Source of the DNA: an archaeon
GTDB taxonomy: Archaea > Asgardarchaeota > Thorarchaeia > Thorarchaeales > Thorarchaeaceae
Length of the DNA stretch: 6,370 bases
NCBI GenBank assembly: GCA_024275415.1
Contig: JAJRZD010000046.1
Location: forward strand, 1 to 6,370
Reading direction: 5' to 3'
Below, piece after piece: positions 4,152-6,370 of this stretch; the first letter of the stretch is position 1; each line of letters begins with the position of its first letter. Below the pieces are notes generated by a model. The model did no database searches, had not been told where the DNA came from, and saw nothing but the letters and a program-made list of their open reading frames with translations. The translations under genes and the position numbers were made by a program.

Positions 4152-4179
4152 CTAATAACTACCTACCAATAGTTATTAG
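4152..4179. promoter_or_regulatory. Perfect 10-bp inverted repeat in the divergent intergenic region (operator or bidirectional promoter candidate)
   Basis: CTAATAACTA (4152-4161), an 8-nt spacer CCTACCAA, then TAGTTATTAG (4170-4179). Outer arms TTCTC (4145-4149) and GAGAA (4181-4185) extend it. Confidence 0.7.
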
Positions 4180-5312
4180 TGAGAAAAACACAAACACATT
4201 TTGTGAATAGCTCAGCTGCTGACATCGAACCGAAGTGTACTATTATCCAGAAGGTCATAGTCCTCGGTGACAATCCTGCATTGATGGCAGGTTTTGTGAA
4301 TCGTGCATCAGGACTAAACACAGTATATCATCTCTATGCAGCACTTGGTGTTGGGATTGGCATTGCACGGACACGGACAACGGATCAGAATGAAGTGGTC
4401 ATGCAGCTTTGGCTGATACCCAACTCGGAAAGAGTGCGGGGAATCAATGAACAGTTCAGGAGAGGATACTCGGGGGCTATAATTGTCGTCAATAATGCAG
4501 ATGTGATGAACCTTAGCAGCCCCCTAGAGTCGCTCAAGAAAGATACCCTTAAGTCGTGCTTGATTGTAGTAGTCGGGTCTCAAGAAGTTGCAGATAGGGC
4601 ACAACAGATTGCTTTACGATATTTTGATGCCATTGAGGAATACACCTCAAGAGTGAGGATTGACAACATCGTCGGTGAATTCGGGAATGCGTTGTACGAT
4701 CATTATAAGGGACAGGAAGCCACCACGATGATAATAAGGCTGGACGAAGACCAATGTCCTGAGTATCACCATATGCAGGTTCATTCCAATATCCCTGAGT
4801 GCACCCCTGAAGGTATCGAACTCATCAAGTCAATCTCCAAACGAATGGGTCTGGTCGTGGACGAGGCTGACATCATCATCGACCATAGTGTAGGACTGTT
4901 CAGAGTGGATTTCAGGAGTGGCGATGTGAGATTCACTCCCGCTTTCTGTGATCACTGTATTCACGACTGCATTAGGAATTCGAATATTTGCATTGTGGGC
5001 ATTGATAGGGGGTGGTCATCAGAGGAAGTGGACGACCGAGCCCTCTTGATTGTTGCCAAAATCTATGCTCTGGCTGAAGACAACCTGCCTCAGCATGTCA
5101 AGAGGCAGATAAGAATAGCACTGCAATGCAGGAACTATTCCCCCATCAAAGATGCTTTCAATGCACCACTGTCAGAGTCGTACTCAGGACGGATCTCATT
5201 GCTCGAAGAGGCAGCACAACGAGTGTCCACACGAAGGCTGTCAGTGTCCACATTCGAATTATTAAAGAAACGGCTACAACACATCAGGAGCAGAGAGGAG
5301 CAATATGGATGA
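4179..5312 (+). CDS. Degenerate Rab/Ras-like small-GTPase-fold protein (pseudo-GTPase) fused to a Cys-cluster domain and a SHOCT-like C-terminus
   Basis: The N-terminal region aligns by eye with Rab-family GTPases (KVIVLGD...LGVGI...VMQLW...ERVRGINEQFRRGYSGAIIVVN) but lacks GKS/T, DxxG and NKxD. Cx2Cx3Cx6C lies at 4947-4991. The C-terminal LLEEAAQRVSTRRLSVSTFELLKKRL resembles SHOCT. The true start may be GTG 4203. Coding status is more certain than the domain calls. Confidence 0.75.
   Translation: MRKTQTHFVNSSAADIEPKCTIIQKVIVLGDNPALMAGFVNRASGLNTVYHLYAALGVGIGIARTRTTDQNEVVMQLWLIPNSERVRGINEQFRRGYSGAIIVVNNADVMNLSSPLESLKKDTLKSCLIVVVGSQEVADRAQQIALRYFDAIEEYTSRVRIDNIVGEFGNALYDHYKGQEATTMIIRLDEDQCPEYHHMQVHSNIPECTPEGIELIKSISKRMGLVVDEADIIIDHSVGLFRVDFRSGDVRFTPAFCDHCIHDCIRNSNICIVGIDRGWSSEEVDDRALLIVAKIYALAEDNLPQHVKRQIRIALQCRNYSPIKDAFNAPLSESYSGRISLLEEAAQRVSTRRLSVSTFELLKKRLQHIRSREEQYG
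5295..5300 (+). promoter_or_regulatory. Shine-Dalgarno-like site for the LOG gene
   Basis: GAGGAG lies 4 nt upstream of ATG 5305, inside the 3' end of the upstream CDS. Confidence 0.55.
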
Positions 5313-5823
5313 TGAGCCAATGCCTCATAGAATGATCTCGGTAATCGGCGGTGCAGACAGTGACATTGGTGCCTTGCAAACAGCAGAACACCTTGGCGAA
5401 GAAATAGCAAAACGGGGTGTGACACTTGTCTGTGGAGGACTTAGTGGGGTCATGGAGGCCGCATGCCGAGGAGCGAAGAAGCATGGGGGACTCACCATTG
5501 GGCTGTTACCTTCTCTTGACAAGAACTCAGCAAACCGTTATGTGGATATTTCCATCCCGACTGGGCTTGGCTATGCTAGGAACTTTCTAGTTGCAAGGAC
5601 AGGCGATGCGGTCATTGCCATTTCAGGTTCGGCAGGGACTCTTAGCGAGATGGCAATAGCATGGTTCTCTGACAAACCTCTAATCGCCTTGGCAGGAACA
5701 GGAGGGTGGGCATCAAAGCTGGCAGGAGCCAAGATAGATGATAGACGGCAGGACATAGTATTCCCAGCAGAAACCCCCGAAGAAGCTGTTAGCATCGCAT
5801 TTCGTGAGCTCGGATGGGATTGA
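5305..5823 (+). CDS. TIGR00725-type LOG (SLOG superfamily) Rossmann-fold protein, putative nucleotide phosphoribohydrolase
   Basis: ISVIGG...AEHLGEEIAKRGVTLVCGGLSGVMEAACRGAKKHGGLTIGLLP...TGLGYARN...AVIAISGSAGTLSE matches the LOG GGxxGxMEA and GxxGTLxE motifs and the conserved Arg. It overlaps the upstream gene by 8 nt. Confidence 0.93.
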   Translation: MDDEPMPHRMISVIGGADSDIGALQTAEHLGEEIAKRGVTLVCGGLSGVMEAACRGAKKHGGLTIGLLPSLDKNSANRYVDISIPTGLGYARNFLVARTGDAVIAISGSAGTLSEMAIAWFSDKPLIALAGTGGWASKLAGAKIDDRRQDIVFPAETPEEAVSIAFRELGWD

Positions 5824-6370
5824 ATGGATCTGATAGCAGATATCGTCAACGGTAGAACGCAAGTCACAGCAGATGAAGTAGAAACCCTTTCACAGATGAT
5901 CCACGACCGCTATCGTAACGAGCCGAATGTCATCACGATCCCAGACATGAATGTACTATATGTTGGAGACCTTCACGGTGACCTCAGTGCAGCCAAGTCC
6001 GTGTTCAAGGAATTTAGTAGGTCAGACAGGTACTCCCTAGTATTCCTAGGTGACTATGCAGATAGAGGACCATGCCAGACTGAAACCGTGAACTATGTCT
6101 TTGCATTAGCACTGCGTTATCCAAGAAGGGTCTTTCTGCTTAGGGGAAACCACGAGTCGGAACGGGTTACTAGAACGTATGGCTTCTACCACGAGGTGGT
6201 CAGGAAGTACTCTAGAGATATCTACAATAGATACATGAACGCATTCCGAGCGCTGCCTATAGCAGGGCTGAGTGAGAATGGAGTGTTCGCATGTCATGGT
6301 GGAGTGCCTGAGCATGTTCATTCGTTAGCAGACTTGCAGATTGGAAATAGGTATGCAATCAACTTTGAGG
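5824..6370 (+). CDS. PPP-family serine/threonine protein phosphatase (calcineurin-like metallophosphoesterase), 3'-truncated by the window edge
   Basis: Absent from the ORF track because there is no stop in the window. ATG 5824 directly follows the LOG TGA. Motifs: GDLHG (5965-5979), GDYADRG (6049-6069), RGNHE (6142-6156) and HGG (6295-6303). 'YGFYHEVVRKY' and 'FRALPIA' resemble PP1/PP2A-like enzymes. Confidence 0.95.
   Translation, partial: MDLIADIVNGRTQVTADEVETLSQMIHDRYRNEPNVITIPDMNVLYVGDLHGDLSAAKSVFKEFSRSDRYSLVFLGDYADRGPCQTETVNYVFALALRYPRRVFLLRGNHESERVTRTYGFYHEVVRKYSRDIYNRYMNAFRALPIAGLSENGVFACHGGVPEHVHSLADLQIGNRYAINFE

Follow-up and report, generated by a model that had tools for sequence, protein, structure and literature searches.

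An operon of Thorarchaeaceae joining a SLOG-superfamily protein to a PPP-type phosphatase, usually preceded by a Rab-like protein without GTP-binding motifs

Eukaryotic PP1, PP2A, and calcineurin are believed to descend from Asgard PPP phosphatases; to our knowledge, nothing is known about how archaeal PPP enzymes are regulated. Characterised archaeal "EukaryoticPPP-like" enzymes are phosphoserine/phosphothreonine (pSer/pThr) phosphatases (PMC8249667), and Asgard PPPs of the type considered here have already been described as relatives of the eukaryotic enzymes (Kerk et al, 2021; PMC8249667). The stretch of DNA analysed here (the window) is the entire 6,370-bp contig JAJRZD010000046.1 of a Thorarchaeaceae genome (3.5 Mb in 127 contigs, 92.9% complete). 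It carries a PPP gene (g3) behind the genes for a SLOG-superfamily protein (g2) and for a Rab-like protein predicted to be catalytically dead (g1). Within Thorarchaeota, the stable unit is the SLOG–PPP pair (g2–g3), and g1 is an accessory that was repeatedly lost. The operon resembles the eukaryotic PP1/PP2A holoenzymes in that one catalytic PPP is encoded together with non-catalytic, possibly modulating proteins, but g1 and g2 are not homologous to known PPP regulators and lack a conserved docking motif, and the operon is lineage-specific rather than ancestral. A limited literature search brought up no earlier account of either the operon or the g1 family.

Operon layout and conservation of its junctions

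The features of the operon within the window are as follows.

4203–5312, + strand: g1, Rab-like protein, 369 aa from GTG 4203 (377 aa from the alternative GTG 4179), from the list of open reading frames (ORFs)
5295–5300, + strand: Shine-Dalgarno-like GAGGAG, 4 nt ahead of the g2 start and within the 3′ end of g1, from reading the sequence
5305–5823, + strand: g2, SLOG cluster 4/TIGR00725 protein, 172 aa (PF18306, TIGR00725)
5824–6370, + strand: g3, PPP Ser/Thr phosphatase, N-terminal 182 of 279 aa in the window, the rest on the downstream contig C38 (L003:3–434)

The three ORFs all lie on the + strand (g1 from GTG 4179 to 5312, g2 from 5305 to 5823, g3 from 5824 to the window end). The first two overlap by 8 nt (ATGGATGA, 5305–5312), with the ATG of g2 at 5305 and the TGA of g1 at 5310–5312, and the TGA of g2 (5821–5823) directly abuts the ATG of g3 (5824–5826). 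An earlier note on this DNA had described three co-oriented genes with exactly this 8-nt overlap plus Shine-Dalgarno sequence (5305–5312) and this zero-gap TGA-ATG junction (5821–5826); both are present in the sequence, and the layout it proposed is borne out, g1-g2-g3 being a tightly packed, translationally coupled operon. Because g2 matches PF18306 at E = 1.2e-45 (155.2 bits; cut-off 26.3), g3 matches PF00149 at E = 3.1e-23 (83.7 bits; cut-off 21.5), and g1 has 13 clusters of conserved homologues, all three ORFs are judged to be real genes, and all three proteins belong to recognisable kinds. The reading frame of g3 continues on C38, joined via a 141-bp overlap, to 279 aa, which matches the length of its 279-aa orthologues (end-to-end alignment at 61% identity in one locus, L005).

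The conservation of the junctions was compared among Thorarchaeota.

g2 to g3: 52 distinct loci, 0 interruptions; spacing −4 to 96 nt, median 15
g1 to g2: 37 loci; spacing −16 to 23 nt, median 4
g1 upstream of g2: 41 testable loci, absent in 13, with other ORFs in its place
g3 to DUF362: 41 loci, DUF362 following in 40, 14 of them with inserted genes between

In every Thorarchaeota locus in which the upstream stretch was present, g2 immediately precedes g3, mostly at a spacing below 20 nt and including 0-nt and overlapping junctions. The adjacency spans Thorarchaeaceae and persists down to about 42% identity of g3 and about 28% of g1, so the linkage, which the earlier note had wanted checked in other archaea, is not limited to this genome. 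Outside Thorarchaeaceae, none of the three genes are adjacent. The operon is read here as an arrangement that arose independently in Thorarchaeaceae, rather than as a holoenzyme that archaea and eukaryotes share by descent.

The mechanism favoured here, at a probability of roughly 0.4, is a ligand-linked SLOG–PPP pair with g1 as an optional adaptor. Coupled translation would provide g2 and g3 in matched amounts; g2, as a sensor or carrier, would gate or accompany the g3 phosphatase, whose output would be tied to the ligand state of g2; and g1 would act as a non-catalytic, dispensable adaptor. The main argument for a functional link is that the g2–g3 junction is uniquely uninterrupted and tight. 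Prediction of a g2+g3 complex (alignments A4 and A5) gave a score of 0.00 in both runs, which, in runs made without controls, speaks neither for nor against binding.

The same gene order could reflect co-expression or inherited synteny only, with two housekeeping genes (a cofactor/nucleotide carrier and a general phosphatase) having been juxtaposed in the Thorarchaeaceae ancestor and then kept together by the synteny of the whole region, without acting directly on each other, a possibility to be taken seriously, albeit on balance a doubtful one. Several observations fit it and weigh against a functional link. The downstream DUF362-UbiA-PHP-LPG synthase block is kept in 40 of the 41 loci, so that shared ancestry could explain the gene order; with the flanks syntenic as well, and the arrangement having arisen once, gene order alone cannot prove a functional link. 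The pair is adjacent in a single family-level clade (family f1), without independent recurrence. In the sister family (genome G112), a gene on the opposite strand lies between g2 and g3; in the other Asgard families checked, the two genes are widely separated or do not share a contig. A scan for PPP loci in one genome per species, queried with PPP alignment A2, returned 80 loci (the same scan with a single PPP protein as query returned none). Among the 37 PPP loci from outside Thorarchaeota, a SLOG-like ORF was found within 5 kb only once, as a weak match to an ORF of roughly 420 aa in a bacterial locus, and g1 was found at none of the 37. Among the 57 longer SLOG homologues listed, no fusion of SLOG to Metallophos or to a Ras/Roc GTPase was found, which is weak evidence. 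The presence of MoeA in the genome would, moreover, make an ordinary role of g2 as a carrier of the molybdenum cofactor (Moco) feasible. Synteny alone is, however, poorly reconciled with the distribution of insertions, which number 0 of 52 between g2 and g3 but 14 of 41 at the next junction downstream, with changes in 13 of 41 loci on the upstream side, or with a spacing that mostly stayed below 20 nt down to about 42% g3 identity.

Across the 301 genomes of the phylum that were surveyed, the genes differ in their range. g2 was found in 227 genomes, with one match in nearly every carrier, and g3 in 218, with one match in most carriers; full-length g1 is restricted to family f1, where about 45 of the 76 genomes gave strong matches.

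The phosphatase and its SLOG partner

The phosphatase is significantly similar to the solved chains of PP1, PP2A, and calcineurin (E = 1.2e-31 to 1e-25). Its motifs GDLHGD, GDYADRG, GNHE, and HGG lie in the window, and the metal- and phosphate-binding motifs are invariant across 28 orthologues. The later metal ligands are present as well, HGG in the window and RAHQ on C38 (compare H173 and H248 of PP1), and the C-terminal histidine, H234, is nearly invariant (≥90%) in alignment A5. Judged by its motifs, g3 is a complete and catalytically intact PPP core. By analogy with the characterised archaeal enzymes, it would be expected to dephosphorylate pSer/pThr. It belongs to the same catalytic family as PP1-arch of Sulfolobus, PP1-arch2 of Methanosarcina, Py-PP1, and the Asgard PPPs, and shares with the archaeal "EukaryoticPPP-like" group GDxHG, GDxxDRG, GNHE, HGG, the C-terminal histidine, and a size of about 280 aa, which comprises the catalytic core only; identity to calcineurin A, PP1, and PP2A of eukaryotes is in the region of 30%. 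Two differences were noted: the g3 gene is translationally coupled to that of a SLOG protein, a neighbour lacking at all but one of the 37 non-Thorarchaeota PPP loci examined, and of the SAPNYC motif only FS(T/A)xY remains. The longer PPP homologues listed in a search for fusions were mostly eukaryotic calcineurins, which is weak evidence.

According to tblastn, g1, g2, and g3 are each single-copy in their own genome, and g3 is the only PP1/PP2A-type PPP detected there. Genes beyond position 6370, anticipated by the earlier note, do exist: g3 is completed on C38 and followed, after a gap of 121 nt, by DUF362, UbiA, PHP_C, and LPG_synthase_TM. These genes are lipid-related, and the kinase for which the note suggested looking is not among them. 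In the whole genome, a single sub-threshold match to the Pkinase model PF00069 was obtained (28.8 bits, in a 218-aa frame on contig C117). Kinases that could oppose g3 are not obvious, though the PPP phosphatase is conserved.

For g2, in addition to PF18306, the model TIGR00725 is matched above its threshold (147.4 bits; cut-off 106.9). The nearest solved structures are TM1055 (1RCU; 6.8e-24), the Moco carrier of Rippkaea (6Y01; 2e-21), and the Moco carrier protein of Chlamydomonas (2IZ5; 2e-19), with all of which g2 shares the Pfam and NCBIfam family as well as GxxGTxxE and Arg-Asn elements. It differs from the Moco carrier proteins in forming an operon with a PPP phosphatase; we know of no description of a Moco carrier in such a context. 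LOG, the cytokinin riboside 5′-monophosphate phosphoribohydrolase, shares the SLOG superfamily and the Rossmannoid fold with g2, but the sequence match is remote (PF03641, 9.6e-5; LOG chains, E about 1e-8). Within the motif GSAGTLSE of g2, GxxGTxxE is retained but not the P-G-G start of the LOG motif PGGxGTxxE. Identity as a LOG enzyme was rejected, the scores being 44.7 bits against a cut-off of 300 (NF058542) and 53.6 against 96.35 (TIGR00730). Of the earlier domain assignments, those of a dead GTPase, a SLOG-superfamily protein, and a PPP phosphatase stand, whereas "LOG" was too specific for a protein of SLOG cluster 4/TIGR00725. Matches to family models and to solved chains place g2 nearer to the Moco carriers than to LOG and suggest a Moco-carrier-like, small Rossmannoid protein, predicted to bind phosphorylated nucleotide-like or pterin ligands. 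The Moco carrier protein of Rippkaea (RoMCP) binds Moco in the crevice that holds the phosphoribose in LOG enzymes (PMC7470044).

Among the 57 longer homologues listed, SLOG cluster 4 is fused to 2H/LigT phosphoesterases (PF02834/PF13563) in at least 10 clusters, to NUDIX and radical SAM domains in one each, and also to helicase-MZB and others (examples are P0163, P0167, P0170, P0173, P0175, and P0177–P0180). The fusions to 2H/LigT and NUDIX hint at a nucleotide- or ribose-phosphate-type ligand, and the theme of SLOG cluster 4 joined to phosphoesterases was counted in favour of the g2–g3 pairing. The fusions could also be read differently, as pointing to a small-molecule pathway: a phosphorylated ligand, pterin or nucleotide-derived, would be bound or processed by g2, and g3 would act on it as a phosphoesterase. 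Such a pathway would parallel the ApaH-type PPP relatives and the recurrent 2H and NUDIX fusions, and it would sit well with the weak match of g3 to the ApaH-type model NF001204 (1.4e-5) and with the near absence of Pkinase matches from the genome. It is nevertheless improbable: g3 is far nearer to PP1/PP2A/calcineurin (E = 1e-31 to 1e-27) than to ApaH, for which it scores 24.6 bits where 176 are required; other Asgard archaea have a single PPP, unlinked to SLOG, of which g3 appears to be the orthologue; and those archaeal relatives that have been characterised dephosphorylate proteins.

In other Asgard families, the orthologues of g2 are found in islands of Rag-like GTPases instead of a PPP operon. 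In 13 of 20 non-Thorarchaeota loci, intact Gtr1/RagA-like GTPases are encoded within a few genes of the g2 orthologue, frequently in the order AIRS-like, SLOG, Rag-like GTPase, Zn-ribbon/Roadblock. Such islands were seen at L133:2171–7531 and at L134–L138, L141, and L143. The GTPase in them is intact (GxxxxGKT, WDLGGQ, HKxD), the next gene encodes a Zn-ribbon plus Roadblock/LC7 protein, and a further Rag-like gene (roughly 500 aa) lies divergently upstream; in other genera, genes for homoserine dehydrogenase, a CLC channel, threonine synthase, and an ACT-domain protein are interleaved. Genomes with these islands carry at least 20 Gtr1/RagA-like GTPases, and the proximity is regarded as a lead, not as evidence. 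A more general idea, which we consider very unlikely, is that the SLOG cluster 4 protein is, Asgard-wide, a small-ligand sensor wired to switch or adaptor proteins of the GTPase fold. Its gene lies, in Loki-type families, between those of the AIR-synthase-like protein and of the Rag-like GTPase with the Zn-ribbon/Roadblock protein, close to genes of amino-acid biosynthesis and of ACT-domain proteins, and, in Thorarchaeota, between those of the Rab-like pseudo-GTPase and of the only PPP. If the idea were true, the operon of Thorarchaeota would represent a prokaryotic module that signals from a ligand to a phosphatase, and it might be a forerunner of nutrient signalling of the Rag/PPP type. The idea that g1 is a degenerate copy of the Rag-like GTPase found beside SLOG in other families was discarded, as hhalign shows no relation.

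The Rab-like protein and its loss

Two regions can be distinguished in g1.

4221–4748, + strand: N-terminal domain of small-GTPase fold, devoid of intact nucleotide-binding boxes, from profile, motif alignment, and AlphaFold2 (AF2) model with Foldseek
4749–5309, + strand: C-terminal domain, alpha-beta-beta-beta-beta-alpha-alpha plus helical tail (alignments A1, A3, and A6)

The 13 clusters of g1 homologues are 35–49% identical, and the named ones are from Thorarchaeota. Pfam returned only a sub-threshold Roc match. The small-GTPase fold is apparent from a profile of the 13 homologues, which matches Rab2/Rab11/Ypt1 chains at E = 5.5e-8 to 1e-5, and from the AF2 model, which Foldseek matches to Rab11/Rab8 at E = 3e-7 with template modelling (TM) scores, by target, of 0.6–0.7. 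None of the nucleotide-binding boxes is retained. In the G1 box, g1 reads GDNPALMA where GDSGVGKS (GxxxxGK[ST]) is expected, Met36 and Ala37 replacing the lysine and the serine/threonine; in the G3 box, WLIPNSE is aligned to WDTAGQE, without DxxG; in the G4 box, GSQEV is aligned to GNKSD (GNKxD), without NKxD. The P-loop GxxxxGK[ST] was found neither in any of the 13 family members nor in nine distant Asgard homologues, and in the alignments none of the P-loop Lys/Ser, DxxG, or NKxD occurs in any family member. Going by these motifs, g1 is a Rab-like protein without GTP-binding capacity signatures, that is, a predicted dead GTPase.

An exhaustive profile search yielded 393 relatives, 39 of them below 1e-30, with stand-alone C-terminal domains among them. 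Distant two-domain homologues (22–27% identical) occur in other Asgard families, likewise without the lysine and serine of the P-loop; therefore, the whole family is classified, on these residues, as an Asgard-restricted pseudo-GTPase family. Compared with Rab/Ras GTPases, g1 is alike in the Rab-like fold and in sequence blocks (FRRGxxGAIIV, for instance, corresponds to YRGAxGAxxVYD), but it differs from them, and from eukaryotic pseudo-GTPases, in an extra Cys-rich domain of 190 aa without a convincing structural match.

Cysteines 257, 260, 271, and 317 of this domain are conserved family-wide (C264 additionally in Thorarchaeota), a GW motif is located at 278–279, and the domain probably carries a putative metal (Zn) site. 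Folded alone (53 sequences), it was modelled with a mean predicted local distance difference test (pLDDT) score of 88. Foldseek against the Protein Data Bank (PDB) returned nothing at E ≤ 0.001; the best hit in VIA wide (Z 5.3, a short helical hairpin) was under the tool's stated noise level; the Atlas shape search gave TM ≤ 0.43, and the Atlas feature search gave no usable match. UEV/E2/RWD-like chains (BRISC 6h3c_C, FANCL, Atg10, Tsg101) were matched over residues 22–135 of the C-terminal domain at Z 4.0–5.2, likewise below noise, so that no fold was assigned. A SHOCT-like tail was rejected, there being no Pfam match at E ≤ 0.1.

According to the proposal in the earlier note, the dead GTPase may serve the phosphatase as a targeting or regulatory subunit, as in the eukaryotic PP1/PP2A enzymes, with g2 supplying or sensing a nucleotide signal. 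In line with this, g1 precedes g2–g3 at tight spacing in 28 of the 41 testable loci (roughly two-thirds of the lineages); catalysis has been lost, but the Rab-like core is still well folded and the C-terminal domain conserved, as would be expected of a scaffold; and with g3 as the sole PPP detected, specificity factors would be useful. However, at the 13 loci without g1 the g2–g3 pair is intact, and no g1 was found elsewhere in the assemblies of genomes lacking it upstream of g2. The g1-less loci are scattered over the g2+g3 tree, whole genera among them, and g1 presence changes state nine times, at least three to four of these changes being forced by supported branches. Therefore, g1 is not an obligatory PPP subunit, and its dispensability weakens the notion of a eukaryote-like holoenzyme. 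Furthermore, homologues of g1 outside Thorarchaeaceae have unrelated neighbours and are never near a PPP or SLOG gene. A candidate RVxF docking motif (RVDF, 242–245) was dismissed as a chance occurrence: a beta strand is predicted there, and homologues do not conserve the motif but have E/N/T/K/Q...L/I at these positions. We regard a role of g1 as the PPP-targeting subunit as unlikely, and the ligand-linked g2–g3 pair with an optional g1 is preferred.

Flanking sequence and what the locus may mean

Upstream of the operon, one further feature was noted.

4152–4179, no strand assigned: palindrome CTAATAACTA-N8-TAGTTATTAG, perfect over 10 bp, with outward-facing TTATTA boxes, from reading the sequence

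The palindrome is located between g1 and a divergent ORF of 89 aa (3863–4132, − strand), for which a family match was not found. Its TATA-like TTATTA at 4173–4178 lies 25–30 nt before GTG 4203, and the region may represent a core promoter of the operon. GTG 4203, not GTG 4179, is most likely the true start of g1, because the homologues all begin at that aligned column, the gene-caller product has 369 aa, and TTATTA is located 25–30 nt upstream, a spacing consistent with a leaderless archaeal start.

Both ends of the window are exact 141-bp overlaps with other contigs (1–141 with C63 upstream, 6230–6370 with C38 downstream); the contig, C25, is an assembly-graph segment linking two long contigs, and strain variation is possibly the cause of its being separate. 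Window positions 3–467 (+ strand), continuing from C63, encode the C-terminal end of a transporter of the cation diffusion facilitator type, in which two ZT_dimer stretches occur; a gene of this kind occupies the same relative place in locus L006. An ORF of 723 aa (1695–3866, + strand) without a Pfam match contains a metzincin-type HExxHxxGxxH motif (HETMHAIGLGH) and a hydrophobic C-terminal anchor and probably encodes a membrane-tethered, secreted metalloprotease; in several Thorarchaeota loci, homologues of it precede g1. An ORF of 2,587 aa (L003:4398–12161, − strand), whose sole domain match is a weak MG2, runs convergently towards the lipid-gene block; a counterpart of 2,581 aa occupies the same place in L006/L007.

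Should the three proteins not interact, the locus would amount to members of three recognisable families whose genes are placed in this order in one lineage. The analysis also defines a family of predicted pseudo-GTPases that is restricted to Asgard archaea and whose Cys-rich domain is uncharacterised. In Thorarchaeota, the sole PPP detected is always coupled to a SLOG protein, usually together with a Rab-like protein that appears to be dead, which makes for a concrete three-protein system that can be expressed and is suited to testing ligand-dependent control of dephosphorylation.

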